A stretch of 64,000 bases of DNA, from positions 44,064 to 108,063 of the forward strand of contig CAIKXD010000174.1 in NCBI GenBank assembly GCA_903831265.1. Direction: 5' to 3'. Positions 1,635-32,404 of this stretch are shown here, in pieces. This DNA is from an uncultured Bacteroidota bacterium. Lineage in GTDB: Bacteria; Bacteroidota; Bacteroidia; UBA4408. Both the position numbers and the translations under genes were made by a program. Positions within the stretch are counted from its first letter, which is position 1, and each line of letters begins with the position of its first letter. The notes under the pieces are model-generated. The model ran no database searches and had not been told where the DNA came from. It was given only the letters and a program-made list of their open reading frames with translations.

Positions 1635-1687
1635 TAACAATAAATATGTTGGCACATCATATTGTTAAACAAATAAATAACAACAAA

Positions 1688-4600
1688 ATGAAAAGAACGA
1701 AAACATTGCTGGCCCTGTCGCTTTCGATTAGCGTGTCGGTAATTTCAGCAAAAGAAAATGTTGGCCTACAAGGTGGAAGAGTCGGTGCAAATGGTGCCAC
1801 CTCTTCAGCTTGTACACCTGCAACGGCAAAGGCAGACTTAAATATTAACAACGTGCGTGCTTTAATCATGAGCGGTGGCGATATGTGGTGGGATCAAGGC
1901 TTGGAGGTAGCACGTTATGAAGTACCTAAGGGTTCTGGAAAGCATTCTTATTTTGCTGCGGCATTATGGATTGGAGGACTAGATCAAGGTGGTCAATTAA
2001 GAACTGCAGCTCAAACCTATCGTCAAACAGGAAACGATTTTTGGCCAGGTCCATTAGATGTTACCAATGCTTCAATTGATGCTACAGGCTGTGCAAGATG
2101 GGATAATATGTTTCAAATTACACGTCAAGAAGTATCCGATTTTGCTGCTTGGTTAGCATCTCCATCAGATTTTCCTGGTTATGAAACCCCTGCCAGTATT
2201 ACTAATTATCCGGGTAATGGTAATGTTAGCTTGAATGAAGATTTAACCATTGCTCCATTTTGGGATATCAATGCCGATGGTCTTTACCGTCCAGAGGATG
2301 GAGATTACCCAAAATATGACATTTTTAATACCGCTTCTGCAGGAGGGGGTTGTTCTAACTTCTTGTTTGGTGATCAAACTTTATTTTGGGTATTTAATGA
2401 TAAAGGAAATATTCATAGTGAATCGGGAGGCCAACCTATGGGGCTTGAAATTAGAGCGCAAGCTTTTGCTTTTGCTACTAACGATGAAATTAATGATATG
2501 ACTTTTTATCAATATCAAATCATTAACAGGAGTAATGTAACTATTTCTAACACTTATTTTGGAAGTTGGAATGACCCAGATTTAGGTCAGTATGATGATG
2601 ATTTTGTAGGTTGTGATGTTGAAAGCGGTTTGGGTTTCTGTTATAACAGCGATGATCAAGATGGTTCAGGCTCAGGCAATAGTTATGGTAGCAAACCTCC
2701 TTGTTCTGCAGTTGACTTTTTTAGAGGTCCAAAAGCTGACCCTTTTTTAGTAAATGGTGTTGCAGTAGATGTGCCTGCTGACTCAACAATTAGTGGTAGT
2801 GGATATGGTGATGGAATTGTAGGAAACGAAACTCTTGGAATGGAGAATTTCATGATTTTTAAAAATGATCAAACTGCGCAAGGTAACCCTTCACAAGCAA
2901 CACATTTTTATAATTATCTGCAGTCTAAATGGAAAGATGGAACTCAACTTACATATGGTGGTTCTGGTTACGGAGGAAGCGTTAATTGTAGATTTGGTTT
3001 CCCTTGGACATCCGATAGCTTAAATAACAATGTTGATTGGCAATGTTCTGAACCTGCCGATTGGCGTTTTATTCACTCTGCTGGTCCATTCACATTAAAG
3101 CCAGGAGCAGTTAACTTTGTTACAACAGGTTGTGTTTGGGCTCAAGCTCAGTCGGGAGGAGCAAAAGCCTCAGTTGAATTGGTAAGAATTGCAGATAAAA
3201 AAGCACAGGCATTGTTTGATAATTGTTTTGCTGTATTGGAAGGTCCACGTGCCCCAGATTTAACGATTCAAGAATTAAATAATCAATTGCTATTGTATAT
3301 CTCTAATCCTAATATTGTAACGTTCAATAATAGAAATGAGCGCTATGAAGAACTTGATCCTTTGATTCCTGCAATAGCCGGAAACGACTTAACATACAAT
3401 TTCGAAGGGTACTTAATTTATCAAGTTAAAGACAACACTGTTACTGCTTCTGAAAGTGATTTAAATGATCCTTCCAAAGCTAGGCTTGCTGCTCAGTGTG
3501 ATATTAAAAACAATTTTGGACAATTAGTTAATTTCACTTTTAACCCTGGTTTAAATGCCAATGAGCCAGTATTAAAAAACCCAACAATAGGAGGTTATAA
3601 TAACGGAATAAAACACTCCTTTAAAATGACCGAAGATAAGTTTGCAACTGGAACTGATAAAAAGTTGGTAAACCATAAAACATATTATTATTTAGCCATA
3701 GCGTATGGAGCAAATAATTTTAAAACATATAATCAAACAGACCCTTCTTCATTTGATGGGCAGAAAAAACCATATATTTCTGGTGCTAAAAACGCAAAAG
3801 GTCAGAGCGTTGCTCCTGTATCAGGTATTCCTCATATTACTTCCCCGCAAGATGGAGGTACAACATTACAAAGTGGATATGGTGATGGGCCTCAAATTAA
3901 AAGATTAGAAGGCCAAGGGAGTGGATATCAAAATTTGGAACTAACCGAAGCTACTATAGATGAAATTTTAAATAGTGCATCAGGCAAAGTTGATCAGCCA
4001 GTGTATAAAAGCACAGCTGGCCCTGTTGAGGTAAAGGTTATTGATCCCTTAAATGTGCCTGACAGTGAATTTAAATTAAAATTCGTAAGTCATGTAATGG
4101 TGCCTAAAATTAGTTTGCAAGGTGGCGCAATTGACTCATTAACTGCCATCAGAAGAAATAGACTTGTAGGTGGTAATACAGAGTATGTATATGCAAATGT
4201 GCCATTAAATTCTAGTGTTTTTGCTATTCAAGGTCTTGTTAATGATACAACATATTTAATAAGAAGAGTGCGAAATATTTTAACAGCAGTAGACACCGCA
4301 GCTTGGGTGCTTACCAATGTTGAAACTAACGATTCTGTTTCATCTGACACTTGCATTAATATTGAAAACGAAAAACTAATCCTGCAATGGGGACTATCAG
4401 TGCGTATAACTAAAGGAGTTGCACCTAGTGTGGTTATGGATAACAATCAAAACGCTTTGGTAAGCAGCAGTTACGAAATAGAAGATCCTACTAAAACATG
4501 GTTGATTGGATTTCCAGATCAAGATGGACAGTCTGCATTTAATTGGATTCGTTCAGGTACACAAACATACCCTGATCCGGTGCCAGGACCTCCAATATTT

Positions 4601-5809
4601 ACTGGGAATGATTTTCCAGGTATTGATGATGGTCAATATTACGAAGGTGTTTTAGATGGAACGATGGCCCCTTATATTTTAACTTCAAATGAAGTAAATG
4701 GTGTTTCGTGGAGCAATGTTTATTTTAATCCTCCAGGAAGAAAGAAAGAGATAATGCGTAATTTAAGAAGTGTTGATATTGTAATCACTAAAGATAAGTC
4801 AAAATGGACACGTTGTCCTGTGATTGAATTACAAGATGATCCAGCTCTAGCAGAGAATGGTGCAGCTAAGTTCGATCTTAGAAAGTCACCTTCACGCGAC
4901 AAGGATGGTAAGGATGATGGATCGGGTACAATCGGAATGAGTTGGTTTCCGGGATATGCCATTAATGTAGAAACTGGCGAAAGATTAAATATGGCATTTG
5001 GAGAAGATTCTTGGCTAGTTGCAGATAATGGAAGAGATATGATTTGGAATCCGACTTCTACTTTCGTTGATAACTTTACAAATGGTACAACTACCGGTAT
5101 GATAATGGGTGGAAAACATGTTGTTTATGTTTTTGGACACTCCGCTAACACACCACAGGACATGCCAGTATACGACCAAGGTGAATTTATGAGAACTAAT
5201 TTACTTGCCAACGTGACCGTGCAAAAACAAAAAGTTTATAAAGACGCTATGTGGGCTTTTGTTCCTATTACTTTGCGAAATACTGAATTTTTGGCAACTA
5301 CAGTAACATTAAAAGCGAGAGTTGCTCGCCCTTACGGAAGATATTATTCGGGTAATCCATTGTTAAGTGGTAGCTACGATCCAAATGCCCCTCAAGCTGG
5401 AACTGTTGCTCAAAATTACGACTTCCCTCTTTATTCATTTGGAACTGGTGAATTGGCAGCCATTAAAGGAAATAATGATGTATCTAAAAATGCACTTGAC
5501 TTGATTAATGTTGTTCCAAATCCATATTTCGCTTATTCGGCTTACGAAGCTAATACGTTAGATAATATTGTAAAAATTACCAATCTACCACAAAATTGTG
5601 TTATTAGTATTTACACAGTTAATGGCACACTCATCAGAAGGTTTCAGAAAGATGACCCTAAAACATCTTTAGATTGGGATTTGAAAAATCAAAGAAACGT
5701 GCCAATAGCAAGTGGTCTTTATTTGATACACGTTAATGTGCCAGATGTGGGTGAAAAAATAGTGAAGTTCTTTGGCACAATGCGTCCAATAGATTTAGAT
5801 CAGTTTTAA
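1688..5809 (+). CDS. Large secreted protein (about 1373 aa from Met-15) with a type-A T9SS-like C-terminal domain plus a short extra tail. It sits immediately upstream of a PorV-like gene, so it may be the PorU-like T9SS signal peptidase/sortase; this is not verified.
   Basis: Signal peptide MKRTKTLLALSLSISVSVISA. C-terminal VVPNPYF...ISIYTVNGTLIRRF...ASGLYLIHV...KIVKF matches the Por secretion tail consensus. A 23-nt gap separates it from the downstream porV-like gene on the same strand. No clear C25 His/Cys dyad identified by eye. Confidence 0.35.
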   Translation: MKRTKTLLALSLSISVSVISAKENVGLQGGRVGANGATSSACTPATAKADLNINNVRALIMSGGDMWWDQGLEVARYEVPKGSGKHSYFAAALWIGGLDQGGQLRTAAQTYRQTGNDFWPGPLDVTNASIDATGCARWDNMFQITRQEVSDFAAWLASPSDFPGYETPASITNYPGNGNVSLNEDLTIAPFWDINADGLYRPEDGDYPKYDIFNTASAGGGCSNFLFGDQTLFWVFNDKGNIHSESGGQPMGLEIRAQAFAFATNDEINDMTFYQYQIINRSNVTISNTYFGSWNDPDLGQYDDDFVGCDVESGLGFCYNSDDQDGSGSGNSYGSKPPCSAVDFFRGPKADPFLVNGVAVDVPADSTISGSGYGDGIVGNETLGMENFMIFKNDQTAQGNPSQATHFYNYLQSKWKDGTQLTYGGSGYGGSVNCRFGFPWTSDSLNNNVDWQCSEPADWRFIHSAGPFTLKPGAVNFVTTGCVWAQAQSGGAKASVELVRIADKKAQALFDNCFAVLEGPRAPDLTIQELNNQLLLYISNPNIVTFNNRNERYEELDPLIPAIAGNDLTYNFEGYLIYQVKDNTVTASESDLNDPSKARLAAQCDIKNNFGQLVNFTFNPGLNANEPVLKNPTIGGYNNGIKHSFKMTEDKFATGTDKKLVNHKTYYYLAIAYGANNFKTYNQTDPSSFDGQKKPYISGAKNAKGQSVAPVSGIPHITSPQDGGTTLQSGYGDGPQIKRLEGQGSGYQNLELTEATIDEILNSASGKVDQPVYKSTAGPVEVKVIDPLNVPDSEFKLKFVSHVMVPKISLQGGAIDSLTAIRRNRLVGGNTEYVYANVPLNSSVFAIQGLVNDTTYLIRRVRNILTAVDTAAWVLTNVETNDSVSSDTCINIENEKLILQWGLSVRITKGVAPSVVMDNNQNALVSSSYEIEDPTKTWLIGFPDQDGQSAFNWIRSGTQTYPDPVPGPPIFTGNDFPGIDDGQYYEGVLDGTMAPYILTSNEVNGVSWSNVYFNPPGRKKEIMRNLRSVDIVITKDKSKWTRCPVIELQDDPALAENGAAKFDLRKSPSRDKDGKDDGSGTIGMSWFPGYAINVETGERLNMAFGEDSWLVADNGRDMIWNPTSTFVDNFTNGTTTGMIMGGKHVVYVFGHSANTPQDMPVYDQGEFMRTNLLANVTVQKQKVYKDAMWAFVPITLRNTEFLATTVTLKARVARPYGRYYSGNPLLSGSYDPNAPQAGTVAQNYDFPLYSFGTGELAAIKGNNDVSKNALDLINVVPNPYFAYSAYEANTLDNIVKITNLPQNCVISIYTVNGTLIRRFQKDDPKTSLDWDLKNQRNVPIASGLYLIHVNVPDVGEKIVKFFGTMRPIDLDQF

Positions 5810-5832: not shown

Positions 5833-6915
5833 ATGATATCAAACAATCGTTTAAGGTTTGCGACATTTACAGCAAGTATTATGTTAGCTAGCACTGTGTT
5901 AGCTGGTAATTCAGACCGCGCTGGCCAAGCTGGTGGTACACAACTACTCATCAATCCTTTTGTAAGAAGCTCAGGTTGGGGAAGCGCAAATTCAGCCTCT
6001 GTAATGGGCCTAGAAGCTCAATATTTAAATGTGGCAGGGGTAGCTCATACAGAAAAAACAGAAATTCTTGCAGCTCGCACTAACTGGTTAGTTGGAACTG
6101 GGATAAGTATAAATTCTTTTGGCTTTAGTCAAAAACTGGGCAACGCCAGTGCGTTGGCATTTGGTGTTATGGCTATGGATTTTGGTAATATCAATGTAAC
6201 CACTGTTGAGCAACCTGAAGGAAATATTGGTACATTTAAACCACAGTTCCTCAATATGAACTTAAGCTATGCAAAGGAATTTTCCAATAGCATATTTGGA
6301 GGTATTAATGTAAAGGTAATCTCCGAGAATATTGCCAATTTAAGAGCCAGCGGGGTTTGTTTTGACGGTGGCATTCAGTATGTTACAAGCTTTGGTAAGG
6401 ATAAAGAATTGAAAAGAAAAAATGTTCATTTTGGAATCTCCCTTAAAAACGTAGGGCCACAAGTTAAATACCAAGGTGATGGCTTGACAACCAAGGCAAG
6501 TTTAACCTCAACTGGAGCTCCTCAAACATTGGAATTTAGATCTCAAGCTTATGACCTACCTTCATTGGTTAATATCGGAGCTTCTTATGATTACTTTTTG
6601 AGTAAAGAAAACAACAACCAGAGAATTACAGCAGCATTAAATTTTACGTCTAACTCTTTCACACAAGATCAATTTAATATTGGCTTTGAATATGGGTTTA
6701 AAGAAATGTTTATGTTAAGAGCAGGAATGGTTTACGAAAAGGGCATTTTTAATGCGGATGAGCGATTAACAGCCTTAACAGGTCCAACTGCCGGTTTCTC
6801 TGCCGATATACCTTTAAAAAAGGACAGTAAACGTAAATTTGGTGTTGAATACGCTTACCGCACAACTAACCCATTTGCAGGTGTTCACTCTATCGGTTTG
6901 CGATTAAAATTGTAA
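5833..6915 (+). CDS. T9SS outer-membrane beta-barrel protein of the PorV/PorQ (FadL-like) family.
   Basis: Signal peptide. N-terminal motif N..RAGQAGG.QLLINPF.RSSGWG resembles the conserved PorV N-terminus (..LLI.PDARAAGMG..). Beta-barrel periodicity. Ends in aromatic-rich ...GLRLKL. Follows the PorU-like gene. Confidence 0.5.
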   Translation: MISNNRLRFATFTASIMLASTVLAGNSDRAGQAGGTQLLINPFVRSSGWGSANSASVMGLEAQYLNVAGVAHTEKTEILAARTNWLVGTGISINSFGFSQKLGNASALAFGVMAMDFGNINVTTVEQPEGNIGTFKPQFLNMNLSYAKEFSNSIFGGINVKVISENIANLRASGVCFDGGIQYVTSFGKDKELKRKNVHFGISLKNVGPQVKYQGDGLTTKASLTSTGAPQTLEFRSQAYDLPSLVNIGASYDYFLSKENNNQRITAALNFTSNSFTQDQFNIGFEYGFKEMFMLRAGMVYEKGIFNADERLTALTGPTAGFSADIPLKKDSKRKFGVEYAYRTTNPFAGVHSIGLRLKL

Positions 6916-14032: not shown

Positions 14033-14953
14033 CTAATGCTTCACAGTAATTTTTCCGGAAGATAACACAGCGGCATTTTTATCTCTTACAGTATAAAAAT
14101 ATAAGCCATTGGCTAAGTGACCCACACCAAAAGTTTCAATTTTTGAGTTTACTCCAAAACTTTCAACAAGCTTTCCGTTTACATCTAAAATTTCAATTTC
14201 TTTTGCTTTTGAGATGCTTCCAAAATCAATGGTAACAAACTCATTGGCTGGATTTGGTGTAATTTTGATACTTTCATTTTTTATGGCCTCTACAATACCT
14301 GTATTAATGGTTCCCCATTTTAAATCATCTATCCATAAGCTGCTTCCAACTTGTGCATTAACTAAATCACTGGAAGATACGGCAATAACACAGGTGTCAG
14401 GTATAACATTTGTAGGTACTGTATAATTTATAACGGCATATTTTAATGTAAACTCGTTAATTGTACCGCTCACATATGCAATTCCTAGCCCTATAGTATC
14501 TCTTTTATTTGTGCCATTATAATTAAATTTCGTCATTGCAACACTAACAAAACCAGAATCAGAGTTTACTGGAGCATATCTCACAAAAAACGCTAATGAG
14601 TCTTTTCTGTTGCTGTATGGGAATCCAAGTTTAATACTTACAGCAGGGAATGGTATGATAGAACCTGTTAACATTAACCCAGAAACATCTGGAACTAAGC
14701 CCCCTGTATTTGAGCTAAGACCGGGAATTGATTTCGTTTTAATATTGGCAGACTTTGAACCCCAATGCCATATAACAGTGTCTTCCTTTACAATTGGAGG
14801 TGTGCCCGCTAAAATATTGGCTGATGTCCAACCTTGAGGATTAGTTCCTAACCCACCAAAGGGAATTTCAAATCCGAAATCAGGCTGTCCTTGCGCAAAA
14901 GCACTCATTGTAAATAAAGTCCCAGTGAAGAGGGTAAGTAAAAGTTTTTTCAT
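14033..14953 (-). CDS. Secreted protein of unknown function with a C-terminal T9SS (type-A Por) sorting domain.
   Basis: Signal peptide MKKLLLTLFTGTLFTMSAFA. C-terminal ITPNPANEFVTIDF...ILDVNGKLV...GLYFYTV...KITVKH. Confidence 0.55.
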   Translation of the reverse strand: MKKLLLTLFTGTLFTMSAFAQGQPDFGFEIPFGGLGTNPQGWTSANILAGTPPIVKEDTVIWHWGSKSANIKTKSIPGLSSNTGGLVPDVSGLMLTGSIIPFPAVSIKLGFPYSNRKDSLAFFVRYAPVNSDSGFVSVAMTKFNYNGTNKRDTIGLGIAYVSGTINEFTLKYAVINYTVPTNVIPDTCVIAVSSSDLVNAQVGSSLWIDDLKWGTINTGIVEAIKNESIKITPNPANEFVTIDFGSISKAKEIEILDVNGKLVESFGVNSKIETFGVGHLANGLYFYTVRDKNAAVLSSGKITVKH

Positions 14954-15014
14954 AAGTGGTTGTTTTTAAGGGGTGTGATTAATTACGTTTATTATTGGTG
15001 TGATGTTAGTATGA

Positions 15015-15728
15015 TTAATTTAATTGTTTGAGATACATTTGAATGGTGTTCTCAATACCATAATACAAAGCATCACTTATTAAGGCATGCCCTATTGATA
15101 CTTCGTCTAAATGCGTAATTTGAGATTTAAAAAACTTTAAATTTTCGATATTTAAATCGTGCCCTGCATTTATTTTTAACCCTAACGAATGTGCCATTTC
15201 TGCAGCTTTTACATATGGCTCGATAGCTTTTTCTTTGTTTGCATTGTAATTTGCTGCGTATGCTTCGGTATACAATTCAACACAGTCTGTTCCAGTTTTA
15301 ATCGCAAAAACCATATTCATAGGTTCGGTATCAATAAAAATAGATGTTCTAATACCCGCATTTTTAAATGGAATAATAATATTTCTTAAAAACTCCTCGT
15401 TTTTTTGTGTATCCCAACCAGCATTTGAAGTTATTGCATCAGGCGCATCGGGAACAAGCGTTACCTGATGGGGTTTTATTTGTAATACCATGTTAACAAA
15501 GTCTTCAGAAGGGTAGCCTTCAATATTTAGCTCTGTGGAAACCTTTTCTTTAAGAGGCTTTAAGTCACTGTATTTTATATGTCGTTCGTCTGGCCTTGGA
15601 TGAACAGTAATTCCTTGCGCGCCAAATCGTTCACAATCAATAGCAAACTTTAGTAAATCAGGCATATTGCCTCCTCTTGCATTGCGCAAGGTAGCTACTT
15701 TGTTGATATTTACACTTAATTTTGTCAC
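15015..15728 (-). CDS. pdxJ: Pyridoxine 5'-phosphate synthase.
   Basis: 237 aa. N-terminal [17 protein letters not shown] and the conserved PdxJ TIM-barrel length. Confidence 0.9.
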
Positions 15729-15730
15729 GT

Positions 15731-16564
15731 TTAGTTAAACAAAACACTTCCTCCGATAGAAGATTTTATAGGGTTTAAAATCATGGTAGGAATTTGAGCA
15801 TCATTTGTAATAATTTGACGTTCATCTGTACCTGCTAATATCTCAGGGAAACCCATTTCCTGACTATTTACGATTGCAATTAAATCGGCATCTTTGGCTG
15901 CCGCATAGGTTAAAAATTGTTTCACAAAATTACCTTTTTCATCGGCCATTTTAACATCAAACTCTATCTTATTATTTCTTAATTCGCTCTTAGCTAATGA
16001 TACATTATTATTGATTGCATTCACTAAAAAGGTATCCGACTCTTGAGGGTAGATGATATGCACTTTGCTGTTAAATACCTTTGCAATATTAATGGCAAGG
16101 CTTAATTTTTGTTTACTATCTTTAGATAAATCAAATGGTAAAACTAAATTATTATAACCGTCTCTAAAACCTCTTTCTTGCACAACTATAAATGGCACTG
16201 TACTGTGTGTAATTACCTTTACAGCATAACTGCCTGTAATATGTTGCATTCCTTTAACTCCGTGGGTGCCCATTATAATTAACTTAGCTTTTAAATCTGT
16301 AGCAGCCGCTCCAATATCATCAAAAATATTTCCTAACCGGGCCTCATAACTAACTTTTATACCTGTTTTTTGGGTTAGAATTTCAGATTGCTCTTTAAGC
16401 TTAACTTCAGCAGAAGCTTTTTCTTTTTCTTTACCAATAATATGTAACAACACAACCTCGGAATTAGCAATAGATTTACACAATCCAATGGCGTGCTCTA
16501 CAGCTGTATCTGCAACCTTTGTAAAATCAGTTGGAACAACTATGATAACTTTTTCTATGCTCAT
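15731..16564 (-). CDS. Universal stress protein (tandem UspA domains).
   Basis: 277 aa with two USP-like halves. G-x2-G-x9-G(S/T) ATP-binding-like motifs ([16 protein letters not shown]). Confidence 0.75.
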
Positions 16565-29184: not shown

Positions 29185-31122
29185 TTGGACGGTTCGGTCA
29201 GTTGCCCTTTGGGCATGGTTACAGGATTTATTTTTCATGGCTTTGGGCCACAATCATTCGTAGAGTTATCTGTTATAGGTGTGCTATTGATTTTCTCGGC
29301 TATAGTTGCAGCTGCAGAAGTCTCTTTCTTTTCTTTAGCACCGGCCGATTATGAACAACTTAAGCAAGATAATAGCACCCACGCACAAAAATTAATTCAG
29401 TTATTAGATAAACCTAAAAGCCTTATAGCCACTATTGTTATGAGTCATAATTTGGTGAATATTGGCGTGGTAATTATTTCTGAAATGCTTTTTAAACAAC
29501 ACTTCAACTTTAGTGATAGTCCGTTAACAGGATTTCTTATTAAAGTTGTGGTAGTAACTTTCGTAATTCTACTTATTGGTGAGGTGATTCCAAAGATTTA
29601 TGCAGCAAAAAATCCACGTGATTTAGCTTTAAAAATGGTGTATATTTTTGATATAGTTCAAAGATTGCTGACTCCGTTTGTTTGGATCCTTGTGGGTATT
29701 GCCGGTGCATTTGATAAGCGAATAAAACAAAAAACACCCGATTTGTCGGTAGATCAACTATCTCAAGCCCTTGAGCTTACTTCAAGTGAACACACGCCCG
29801 AAGAAGAAAGGAAAATCTTACAAGGAATTGTGGAGTTTGGAAATACAGAAGTAAGTCAGATTATGAAACCAAGAATTGATGTGGTTGCTTTTGATGAAAA
29901 TACTCCGTTTTTAGAAGTTATTGACCTCATAGTAAAAAATGGTTTCTCTCGAGTGCCAATTTATAGCGAAACTTTGGATAAAGTTGTTGGGGTGCTTTTT
30001 ATTAAAGATCTTATTGCTCATCTTGACAAAGGCAATGATTTTAACTGGCAAAGTTTATTAAGGCCCGCATTTTTTGTTCCTGAAAGCAAAAAGATTGATA
30101 ATTTAATGAAAGAATTTCAGAGCAAAAAAATACATCTGGCTATTGTTGTAGATGAGTATGGAGGGACTAACGGAATTGTAACACTCGAAGATGTTATTGA
30201 AGAAGTTATAGGTGAAATTAATGATGAGTTTGACGTTGAGGAGTTGGTTTATTCGAAGCTTGACGAAAACAATTATATTTTTGAAGCAAAAATTCCTTTA
30301 AATGATTTATATAGGGTGTTGGATATTGATGGTGAGGTTTTTGAAGATAAAAAAGGAGAATCAGACACATTAGCGGGATTTATTTTAGAATTGAGTGGAA
30401 AAATCCCTGTAAAAAATGAAAAAATTTCCTTCGACAATTATGTTTTTACGGTTGAATCGGTTGATAAAAGAAGGATAAAACGAATTAAACTTACAATACT
30501 TAATCACAACCAGCAAGGTACTTTTCATGATGGAGGAAAAATAATCCCGAGTGTTTTACTGCCATTCTTATTATTGATTTCTATTTTATTTACTTCTTGC
30601 GATGAAGATTATACACCAAAACCAAGGGGCTATTTTAGAATAGATTTGCCTACAAATACGTATCAAACGATTGCAACAAATTGCCCTTTTTCTTTTGAAT
30701 ACTCAAAATACGCCAACGCAAATGTATACGAGGGCAGCCAAATTGAAAACTGCTGGTATAATATCGATTACCCTAAGCTCAACGCCACAATACATTTAAG
30801 TTATTCACCTTTACAAGGAAAAGATGACTTAGAAAAACAATTAAGCAACTCAAGAACCCTAGTTTATAAGCATACTGTTAAAGCAGATGGTATTGAGGAA
30901 ATTCCAATCAGCTATGAATCTAAAAGTGTGTATGGATTAATTTACAATTTAAGTGGCAACAGTGCCTCTCAGGTACAGTTTTATTTAACAGACAGTACCA
31001 AGCATTTTTTAAGGTGTGCCTTGTATTTTAACTCAAGTCCCAATGCCGATTCTATTGCACCTGTATTAAATTACATTAGTAAGGATATTGATAGGTTTAT
31101 AGAAACTTTTCGCTGGCAATAA
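29185..31122 (+). CDS. gldE: GldE (DUF21-CBS pair-CorC/HlyC gliding motility protein) continuing in-frame, with no stop codon, into a GldD-like lipoprotein moiety. This is an apparent GldE-GldD fusion ORF (645 aa).
   Basis: N-terminal 4-TM DUF21. CBS pair (VVAFDENTPF...; HLAIVVDEYGGTNGIVTLEDVIEEVIGEI). CorC_HlyC region (FVFTVESVDKRRIKRIKLTIL). Then a hydrophobic stretch IIPSVLLPFLLLISILFTSC with LFTSC lipobox and a GldD-like mature part (DEDYTPKPRGYFRIDLPTNTY...). No in-frame stop between the two moieties. Confidence 0.7.
   Translation: MDGSVSCPLGMVTGFIFHGFGPQSFVELSVIGVLLIFSAIVAAAEVSFFSLAPADYEQLKQDNSTHAQKLIQLLDKPKSLIATIVMSHNLVNIGVVIISEMLFKQHFNFSDSPLTGFLIKVVVVTFVILLIGEVIPKIYAAKNPRDLALKMVYIFDIVQRLLTPFVWILVGIAGAFDKRIKQKTPDLSVDQLSQALELTSSEHTPEEERKILQGIVEFGNTEVSQIMKPRIDVVAFDENTPFLEVIDLIVKNGFSRVPIYSETLDKVVGVLFIKDLIAHLDKGNDFNWQSLLRPAFFVPESKKIDNLMKEFQSKKIHLAIVVDEYGGTNGIVTLEDVIEEVIGEINDEFDVEELVYSKLDENNYIFEAKIPLNDLYRVLDIDGEVFEDKKGESDTLAGFILELSGKIPVKNEKISFDNYVFTVESVDKRRIKRIKLTILNHNQQGTFHDGGKIIPSVLLPFLLLISILFTSCDEDYTPKPRGYFRIDLPTNTYQTIATNCPFSFEYSKYANANVYEGSQIENCWYNIDYPKLNATIHLSYSPLQGKDDLEKQLSNSRTLVYKHTVKADGIEEIPISYESKSVYGLIYNLSGNSASQVQFYLTDSTKHFLRCALYFNSSPNADSIAPVLNYISKDIDRFIETFRWQ
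30553..30600 (+). other. gldD: Internal signal-peptide-like hydrophobic segment ending in a lipobox (L-F-T-S-C, Cys codon at 30598..30600), marking the start of the GldD-like moiety.
   Basis: SVLLPFLLLISILFTSC|DED read directly from the translation. No upstream in-frame ATG/GTG start nearby; the only in-frame TTG would give a 9-residue signal. Confidence 0.55.
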
Positions 31123-31223: not shown

Positions 31224-31258
31224 AAAAGCCTGTTCTAATTGATTAAAACAGGCTTTAG
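31224..31258. terminator. Bidirectional rho-independent terminator between convergent gldD-like and siaC-like genes.
   Basis: AAGCCTGTT-ctaattgattaa-AACAGGCTT perfect 9-bp stem with A-tract 5' and T-tract 3'. Confidence 0.65.
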
Positions 31259-31283: not shown

Positions 31284-31667
31284 CTATTCTTGCACCATCA
31301 CCATTTTAAAAGGCACATTAATGATAGCTTGATAATCTTCACCAGCCTCACTCATGTCCTCATCATCTTCTTCGTAATGCCAATTGATTATAACCTGGCT
31401 CTGTCCGCCCTTATTTATTGATTCAAGCTTTTTAAACACATCTAAAATGCATTTAGAAGAGCTTGTGTTAAAATATTCAAGTTGGATATTTACTATTGTA
31501 TCTGTTTTTGGTTTACTAGAGTATTTTTCTAACCAATCGATTAATGGTTTGTAAAATTCAATTGAATTTTCAGGAATAGATCTTCCTTTTATTTCTATAA
31601 TTCCTTGCTCTGCATCAAATTTAATGGTTGGTGTTTTTGCTGAGCCTTCTATTAATAAAGTTTCCAT
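31284..31667 (-). CDS. DUF1987-family protein (SiaC-like partner-switch component).
   Basis: 127 aa, the same length class as P. aeruginosa SiaC. N-terminal LIEGSAKTPTIKFDAEQGIIEIKGRSIPENSIEFYKPLIDWLEKY pattern typical of DUF1987. Confidence 0.5.
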   Translation of the reverse strand: METLLIEGSAKTPTIKFDAEQGIIEIKGRSIPENSIEFYKPLIDWLEKYSSKPKTDTIVNIQLEYFNTSSSKCILDVFKKLESINKGGQSQVIINWHYEEDDEDMSEAGEDYQAIINVPFKMVMVQE

Positions 31668-31696
31668 AGTGTTTATAAAGGGTTGTGTAGGTTTTA

Positions 31697-32266
31697 CTAT
31701 ATTTTAATGTTAAGGCTAAAGAATGAAAACTGGTCATCAATATCAACAAAGTTAAAGTTTAGCTTTTGTCCTGATTTTCTAGCGATATCAATCATACCAA
31801 GACCACCACCACCTTTTTCGGAAAACTCATCGTTGTTAAGTATTTCTTTGTAGTATTCCTTTAGCTCATCTTTATTCATTACGTTAATTCTATTTAGCTT
31901 TTCGCGCAGAGAAGCTACATTTTCGTTAAGGATATAATTTCCTGTAATGATGTTGTATTCTGTACCTATTTTGCCAATCATAAAGATGGCCGAACGGTAC
32001 TTTTTTGCTTTTTCGGAATTGTCATTTATATCTACATCTAAATGATGATATAAATTTTGCAGACATTCTACAAGTACATTATATACTTTTTTCTTGATTT
32101 TTGGTTCCTCTTGCAAGTTGTCTAACTTGCTTTCCATAATTTGTAGTATAGAGGTAAGCAACTCAGCGGTGATATCACCCTTGAACGAAAGCATAATTTT
32201 ATTACGCTCCATTTTGTCGTAAAACTCATAAATATCAAGCATTTCAGAAATTTTTACGTCTTGCAA
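31697..32266 (-). CDS. SiaB-like small GHKL-type protein kinase/anti-sigma-factor-like protein.
   Basis: 189 aa. G2-box GGGGLGMIDIARKSG near the C-terminus. Located 30 nt upstream of the DUF1987 gene on the same strand, in the siaB-siaC order. Confidence 0.45.
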   Translation of the reverse strand: MQDVKISEMLDIYEFYDKMERNKIMLSFKGDITAELLTSILQIMESKLDNLQEEPKIKKKVYNVLVECLQNLYHHLDVDINDNSEKAKKYRSAIFMIGKIGTEYNIITGNYILNENVASLREKLNRINVMNKDELKEYYKEILNNDEFSEKGGGGLGMIDIARKSGQKLNFNFVDIDDQFSFFSLNIKI

Positions 32267-32404
32267 GTTACCTTTCTTTATTGGTTAATAACTAACTTTA
32301 CTTTTATTAATTGTGGCAAATTTATAAATTACTTCAAAATCTACAATTTTTTTATCAAAAAAAATATCGTTATATGAAATGATAATATCGACAAAATTTT
32401 TAAT

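Follow-up and report, generated by a model that had tools for sequence, protein, structure and literature searches.

A siaB-siaC gene pair in an uncultured Bacteroidota bacterium, probably a phospho-switch that is separated from the phosphatase genes of its Bacteroidia relatives

The SiaABCD system of Pseudomonas aeruginosa (PA0172-PA0169) consists of the HAMP-PP2C phosphatase SiaA, the kinase SiaB, the phosphoprotein SiaC, and the diguanylate cyclase SiaD. This switch is known only as a regulator of cyclic di-GMP (c-di-GMP) and biofilms in Pseudomonas, and the c-di-GMP cyclase is the only SiaC output known from experiments (PMC7278518, PMC8457831). We found no publication from outside Pseudomonas that deals with DUF1987, with DUF6272, or with the SiaB family. 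Here we describe a siaB-siaC gene pair on a 64-kb stretch of DNA from an uncultured Bacteroidota bacterium (contig CAIKXD010000174.1; the whole stretch is called the window below) and compare it with related loci in Bacteroidia, where the same core was found in at least 571 species at about 80% identity. Annotation pipelines already recognize both proteins, and the Bacteroidia variant is widespread without a published study that we could find. The pair of the window is probably a self-contained bicistronic phospho-switch of the Sia/partner-switch type, with its phosphatase acting in trans and with a target other than SiaD that is conserved across Bacteroidia.

A preliminary description, made from the sequence alone, had called the 189-aa protein a SiaB-type GHKL kinase and the 127-aa protein a member of DUF1987, and profile searches bore out both assignments. 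The 189-aa protein matched SiaB_fam_kinase (NF038262) over the whole profile (1-177 of 177) with 170 bits, against a cutoff of 85 (E = 3.5e-50), and DUF6272 (PF19788) with 145.6 bits (threshold 26.6), and thus it belongs to the SiaB family by curated score and by full-length coverage of the model. A Pfam match of this protein to FANCI_S3 was dismissed as spurious (24.2 bits, under the cutoff of 25). It aligned over its full length, at 29% identity, to the kinase in the crystal structure of the P. aeruginosa SiaB-SiaC complex (6KKO_A, E = 1.7e-14). The AlphaFold2 (AF2) model of the kinase had a predicted local distance difference test (pLDDT) score of 82, and its top match in the Protein Data Bank (PDB) was again SiaB (6KKO_A), with template modelling (TM) scores of 0.73/0.80. 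Next came SpoIIAB and RsbW, which are anti-sigma kinases (Foldseek probability 1.00, target-normalised TM scores of 0.56-0.65), and histidine-kinase ATP-binding (CA) domains. The G2-box GGGGLGMIDIARKSG pointed out earlier is at aa 152-166. We judged the conservation of the SiaB motifs by general knowledge of GHKL proteins and by the alignment to 6KKO_A: E67 and N71 of the N-box and G152-G157 of the G2-box are aligned to the motifs of P. aeruginosa SiaB and were invariant among 14 homologues. The GHKL (Bergerat) fold, the N-box (E..N), and the glycine-rich G2 box are therefore all present in the kinase. Database searches returned 5358 homologues at E <=1e-3, the top 120 of which were all at least 70% identical, and NCBI already lists several of the top homologues, in metagenome-assembled genomes (MAGs) of Bacteroidia, as "SiaB family protein kinase".

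The 127-aa protein matched SiaC (PF09345, formerly DUF1987) with 150.5 bits (threshold 24.5, E = 2.1e-44) over positions 1-119 of 120, and thus the whole domain is present above the gathering threshold. It aligned over its full length to the SiaC chain of the complex (6KKO_C, E = 2.6e-20, about 35% identity), and 6K4F was likewise matched. In P. aeruginosa SiaC, T68 (LLYLNTSSIK) has been shown experimentally to be the acceptor threonine (PMC7647112). Its counterpart here is T68 in LEYFNTSSSK, and the N-T-S context is identical. The preliminary description had proposed to look for a conserved phospho-acceptor Thr or Ser; Thr68 and the surrounding 14-residue motif were invariant in all 77 Bacteroidia homologues. 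In the AF2 model T68 is at the N-terminus of helix 68-84, and thus the acceptor has the expected place at the start of helix alpha2 in an N-T-S-S context. SiaC has been described as structurally related to STAS proteins (PMC7647112, PMC8457831). The only confident PDB matches of our SiaC model were SiaC structures, and the canonical STAS protein 4QTP was matched weakly (E = 0.12, probability 0.63).

The gene order, siaB followed by siaC, is also that of P. aeruginosa, and most Bacteroidia relatives encode a membrane-anchored PP2C sensor in the cluster. The parts resemble those of RsbU/RsbV/RsbW and SpoIIE/SpoIIAA/SpoIIAB as well, in which a PP2C phosphatase works with a Ser/Thr kinase of the GHKL type and with a small alpha/beta acceptor that is phosphorylated at the N-terminus of a helix. 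Unlike in these Gram-positive modules, the acceptor belongs to DUF1987 rather than to a canonical STAS family, no sigma-factor gene is linked, and the kinase of the window has an extra N-terminal segment of about 50 residues.

The other half of the Sia system is missing from the window, as had been claimed for the surroundings of the pair. Every ORF (open reading frame) of at least 110 aa in the 64 kb was screened by Pfam, directly or via precomputed matches on identical contigs, and none of them matched a SpoIIE/PP2C or GGDEF family. A PP2C-domain profile built from the phosphatases of relatives, run with the HMMER filters off (--max) on the six-frame translation of the window, gave nothing below E 3, and no GG[DE]EF motif was found within the window. 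The sensor, lipoprotein, and PP2C sequences of relatives were also used as queries against the window (blastp, tblastn, and hmmsearch --max) and gave nothing below E ~0.02. Moreover, both proteins scored under the cutoffs of the equivalog models, the kinase with 91.4 bits for kinase_SiaB (NF038264, cutoff 225) and the phosphoprotein with 101.2 bits for phos_prot_SiaC (NF038265, cutoff 150). Therefore, with neither siaA nor siaD in the operon or the window, the locus is not a SiaABCD system in the strict sense.

The residues by which SiaC would contact a cyclase have also changed. Fourteen SiaC positions that contact the stalk of the SiaD cyclase are listed from the structure of the SiaC-SiaD complex (PMC8457831), and we mapped them through the alignment of the window's SiaC to 6KKO_C. 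Only Y65, N67, T68, and S69 of the phospho-loop are kept. The replacements include D29R, Y31I, I71S, D79K, R103D, L107A, and D114I, each of them invariant in 77/77 Bacteroidia sequences. A motif search of the neighbourhoods found no GG[DE]EF in any ORF of 80 genome loci. Since no GGDEF motif was present in these loci, and since the contact residues have been replaced and are yet invariant, the output of the switch is likely to differ from the SiaD cyclase. The switch might instead be a scattered SiaABCD system that still drives the synthesis of c-di-GMP, by a GGDEF cyclase whose gene lies elsewhere in the genome. A cyclase is after all the sole SiaC output with experimental support (PMC7278518, PMC8457831), and our searches covered loci rather than whole genomes. 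However, the 80 loci without the motif, the difference from Pseudomonas at nine of the 14 contact positions (including three charge reversals), and the scores under both equivalog cutoffs (SiaC 101 vs 150, SiaB 91 vs 225) make such a system improbable. The idea that the partner switch is wired to a different output, put forward in the preliminary description, is therefore plausible, while the motility output that was suggested along with it is unsupported, as discussed below.

The arrangement that is usual in Bacteroidia was recognized from a scan of one genome per GTDB species, in which the species with a SiaB relative were counted and the 80 loci were retrieved. In 76/79 loci siaC follows siaB. 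Clustering of the neighbours together with Pfam revealed a recurrent order on one strand: a sensor-PP2C gene, a lipoprotein gene, siaB, and siaC. The sensor-PP2C protein has 1030-1145 aa and consists of a periplasmic Reg_prop beta-propeller and Y_Y_Y domain, followed by a single transmembrane helix and, at the C-terminus, a cytoplasmic SpoIIE/PP2C domain. Of 54 loci with at least 4.5 kb of upstream flank, 31 have a SpoIIE-domain gene within 10 kb, which mostly encodes a Reg_prop/Y_Y_Y/SpoIIE protein directly upstream. The lipoprotein (265-326 aa, typically about 276 aa, no Pfam family) is encoded directly upstream of siaB in 42/80 loci and presumably acts in the periplasm as a co-sensor with the propeller-PP2C. 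In the alignment of this family (A2, 42 sequences; for example, L049:9020-9850), the lipobox Cys is invariant, and other Cys, Gly, and Asp positions are conserved as well. The linkage was also seen in an independent sample, drawn from metagenomes of the Joint Genome Institute (JGI) with the lipoprotein profile instead of SiaB: siaB was the next gene after the lipoprotein in 43/46 loci and a PP2C gene was the previous gene in 27/32. No locus attributable to the clade of the window was found in this metagenome scan. In two metagenome loci of low GC content (L135, 1319-6822; L139, 1311-6807), the lipoprotein follows proteins of about 1430 aa and about 105 aa instead of a PP2C, and it is not followed by siaBC.

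The relatives differ from the Pseudomonas system in that their phosphatase carries a periplasmic Reg_prop/Y_Y_Y propeller rather than the sensor of SiaA, a lipoprotein goes with it, GGDEF partners were not seen in these loci, and the SiaD-binding residues of SiaC are replaced. The same periplasmic beta-propeller with Y_Y_Y is found in the hybrid two-component (glycan) sensors of Bacteroides, but there the output is a histidine kinase, receiver, and AraC rather than a SpoIIE/PP2C domain; the window itself lacks the propeller-PP2C protein. Some relatives have SpoIIE proteins of other architectures encoded next to the pair, namely, a protein of about 467 aa, TPR-SpoIIE, and HAMP-SpoIIE preceded by a YfiR-like protein. 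Locus L033 (1748-8901) has three SpoIIE genes in a row (467 aa; TPR-SpoIIE, 759 aa; Reg_prop-SpoIIE, 1100 aa) before lipoprotein-siaB-siaC, and in locus L034 (11099-14415) the genes downstream of siaC encode a DUF4154 protein resembling YfiR, a TPR protein, and a HAMP-SpoIIE protein resembling SiaA. The three consecutive genes of L033 and the SpoIIE gene downstream of siaC in L034 suggest that several inputs feed one switch. Apart from the PP2C and lipoprotein genes, the recurrent neighbours are each found in 8-12 of the 80 loci (a divergent methyltransferase gene; a DeoC-family aldolase gene with an accD-like gene) and look like lineage-specific housekeeping synteny.

Mean pairwise identities among 21 species with all four genes were as follows: SiaC, 82%; SiaB, 78%; PP2C domain, 62%; sensor region, 39%; lipoprotein, 38%. 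Since the identities of SiaC and SiaB far exceed those of the sensor and the lipoprotein, the cytoplasmic switch is far more constrained than its input. Such constraint would be consistent with further conserved partners, but co-evolution with the PP2C and SiaB could account for some of it. There may be a phylum-wide pathway of Bacteroidia, which we propose tentatively, in which the extracytoplasmic beta-propeller PP2C and its dedicated lipoprotein set the phosphorylation of a near-invariant SiaC-like protein that controls a conserved target other than a cyclase. Because the identity is about 80% across families, the target is possibly a core cellular machine. In the loci seen, the Bacteroidia core is normally wired to a glycan-sensor-like PP2C and a lipoprotein and never to a cyclase. 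The signalling of this phylum has mostly been described in terms of hybrid two-component systems and extracytoplasmic function (ECF) sigma/anti-sigma systems, and finding the target would add a Ser/Thr phospho-switch pathway to it.

The pair of the window lacks this input half, and so do its closest relatives. The four closest genome loci (L008-L011), with SiaB identities of 91-96%, share with the window the order radical-SAM gene, 93-aa gene, lgt, IMPase gene (for an inositol-monophosphatase-family protein), siaB, siaC, and no PP2C or lipoprotein gene was found within 10 kb in any of them. Within the clade, dS ranged from 0.6 to saturation, and the ratio of nonsynonymous to synonymous substitution rates (dN/dS) was 0.006-0.037 for siaC and 0.023-0.046 for siaB. 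With such low ratios for both genes, the detached pair is functional and under strong purifying selection, and the possibility that it is a decaying remnant was rejected (dN/dS 0.006-0.046). Nineteen other loci are also without a nearby PP2C gene and sit in unrelated contexts (era-der, lysA, and peptidase genes). Detachment from the PP2C has occurred repeatedly. The upstream genes of the PP2C-less loci, which encode Der, LysA, M32 and M28 peptidases, and a 414-aa protein with no Pfam match, were considered as alternative phosphatases and set aside as unrelated housekeeping genes. The preliminary description had seen an orphan pair. This holds for the window, where neither SiaA nor SiaD is encoded, but not for the lineage, given the PP2C genes within 10 kb in 31/54 relatives. 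The isolation of the pair is a local change of gene order, and the window has a rearranged minority form of the widespread variant. For the window alone the significance is modest, as the pair can already be annotated and its isolation is due to rearrangement. It does show that a SiaB/SiaC core that has parted from its sensor genes can still be strictly maintained.

Based on these comparisons, the switch would work as follows. The SiaB-family GHKL kinase, whose activity is predicted, would phosphorylate Thr68 of the STAS-like SiaC-family protein, and one or more SpoIIE/PP2C sensor phosphatases would take the phosphate off. Unphosphorylated SiaC would then bind and modulate its target via the alpha2/alpha3 face, and this target would be a partner other than a SiaD-type diguanylate cyclase, apparently conserved across Bacteroidia. 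In the clade of the window, the sensor/lipoprotein half is separated from the pair, with lgt-IMPase upstream instead, and for this reason the phosphatase would act in trans from another locus; it is most likely encoded elsewhere in the genome. Split modules do exist, since locus L102 has the PP2C and lipoprotein genes without siaBC (its GC content is 0.57, compared with 0.355 for the window).

Several points weigh against this proposal. No phosphatase gene was found in the 64-kb window, which was the sole region of this genome that was searched, and action in trans is an assumption. The related loci without PP2C within 10 kb amount to 23/54, and thus a large minority of species might have a pair that works with no dedicated phosphatase. 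The replaced but invariant residues of SiaC could have co-evolved with SiaB or the PP2C and not with a new output partner. The check for GGDEF was a motif search of neighbourhoods, and a distant cyclase could still be the target. The literature found on these families deals with Pseudomonas only.

The 23 PP2C-less loci, together with their varied housekeeping contexts (era-der, lysA, lgt-IMPase), would suit a minimal switch without a dedicated phosphatase. The kinase would then do the sensing itself, for example by responding to the ATP/ADP ratio like kinases of the SpoIIAB/RsbW type, and dilution, turnover, or a non-specific phosphatase would reset the phosphorylated SiaC. The kinase fold is indeed like that of SpoIIAB and RsbW, and purifying selection on the pair is strong even where no phosphatase is linked to it. 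However, the PP2C, lipoprotein, and siaBC genes are tightly linked in most species, which speaks for a design that depends on a phosphatase. As many as three consecutive SpoIIE genes lie beside one siaBC pair (L033), so that several phosphatases, some of them distal, probably feed one switch, and the split locus L102 shows that the PP2C and lipoprotein genes can stand apart from the pair. We therefore regard a phosphatase-free switch as rather unlikely and prefer a phosphatase acting in trans.

The coordinates of the pair and of the signals around it are given in Table 1.

Table 1. Features of the siaB-siaC locus, in positions of the window.
Feature	Coordinates	Strand	Description
siaB-family GHKL-type Ser/Thr kinase gene (predicted activity)	31697..32266	(-)	longest ORF, 189 aa from TTG 32266
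SiaC-family (DUF1987, STAS-like) phospho-acceptor gene	31284..31667	(-)	127 aa, Thr68 in QLEYFNTSSSKCIL
Promoter-like element, Bacteroidota type	32317..32346	(-)	aTTG, 19 nt, TAAATTTG; -7 motif TAnnTTTG at 32324-32317; read from the sequence
Terminator-like hairpin	31224..31256	(-)	10-bp perfect stem AAAGCCTGTT / AACAGGCTTT, 12-nt loop, T-run; read from the sequence

Both ORFs lie where the preliminary description had placed them, and they are 29 nt apart. The true start of siaB is probably ATG 32242, which would give a protein of 181 aa, because homologues mostly have 180-183 aa, their alignments start at residue 9, and residues 1-8 of the model have pLDDT <50. The promoter-like element was recognized by what we take to be the consensus of Bacteroides/Flavobacterium promoters. 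The hairpin lies 28 nt past the siaC stop codon, inside the convergent gap that siaC shares with gldE-gldD; it was absent from the output of the automatic scan because its loop is longer than 8 nt. With a promoter-like motif before siaB and a hairpin after siaC, the pair looks like a separate bicistronic unit.

The neighbours named in the preliminary description, an IMPase-family gene upstream and gldD/gldE downstream, were confirmed, with the difference that gldE-gldD is a single fused ORF on the opposite strand and convergent to siaC. Upstream on the same strand are the genes for a radical-SAM enzyme, the 93-aa protein, Lgt, and the IMPase-family protein (PF00459, 222 bits), the last of which ends 138 nt before siaB. 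This same-strand position with a short gap, and the order lgt-IMPase-siaB-siaC common to the window and L008-L011, could mean that the IMPase-family protein cooperates with the pair, whether it stands in for the phosphatase of phosphorylated SiaC or is the enzyme that the pair regulates. The association is, however, confined to one shallow clade, and the promoter-like motif lies inside the gap between the two genes. The IMPase also evolves much faster in the same genomes (65-90% identity, compared with 91-98% for SiaB/SiaC). Moreover, IMPase enzymes act on small sugar phosphates and not on phosphoproteins. A partnership is thus very improbable.

On the other side of the pair, adjacency to gliding-motility and surface-adhesin genes had been taken as a hint at motility or surface behaviour. 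The proposal would be that the pair regulates gliding motility, the T9SS (type IX secretion system), or surface adhesins, by its proximity to gldE-gldD, ssb, the genes for an OmpA-like protein and PorP/SprF, and the gene of a 3006-aa adhesin. The genes are physically adjacent in the window and in L008, and in L055, L067, and L075 a PKD/SprB protein that is T9SS cargo is encoded upstream of the lipoprotein. However, gldE-gldD is convergent to the pair, and the hairpin lies between it and siaC. In L009 and L010 (SiaB identity 93-95%), siaC is flanked by homologues of the window genes at 14033-16564, with their orientation inverted, and the 3006-aa adhesin gene comes next; therefore, the segment 14033-31122 of the window is inverted relative to these two loci. 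It spans about 17 kb and corresponds to 11440-20566 in L009 and 11256-20567 in L010; one breakpoint is intergenic, just 3' of siaC. The segment contains pdxJ, usp, the 3006-aa CHU_C/Ig_7 adhesin gene, the PorP/SprF and OmpA-like genes, ssb, and gldE-gldD, and in the other orientation gldE-gldD would lie about 17 kb off. L011 has unrelated genes beside siaC, and no gld gene recurs beside siaBC in the other 75 genome loci. Since the genes are convergent, the adjacency stems from an inversion, the genes in L011 are unrelated, and no gld gene recurs elsewhere, the adjacency to gldE-gldD carries no functional signal. The hint at motility is thus not upheld, and we give almost no credence to a role in gliding.

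The fused gldE-gldD ORF has 645 aa (window 29185-31122, (+) strand; junction at 30481-30639), with TIGR03520 matched at aa 32-438 and TIGR03512 at aa 464-645. The lipoprotein signal peptide and lipobox of GldD (...LLLISILFTSC, followed after the cleavage mark by DEDY) are kept internally, and no in-frame stop codon or ATG/GTG precedes them. Gene callers also produced a fused call of 635-645 aa on six independent contigs. It could be either a true fusion, in which the internal signal serves as a transmembrane helix or a signal-peptidase-II site, or a gldD gene with a non-canonical start. Elsewhere in the window, two proteins encoded on the (+) strand downstream of a TonB-dependent receptor fragment (1387 aa at 1646-5809 and 360 aa at 5833-6915) matched no Pfam family at E <=1e-4. 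Finally, six of the MAG records (L010, L029, L049, L062, L065, and L076) are labelled Chitinophaga pinensis, Synechococcus, Saccharibacteria, or Akkermansia while containing a clearly Bacteroidia locus, and these labels are probably binning or labelling errors in public records.

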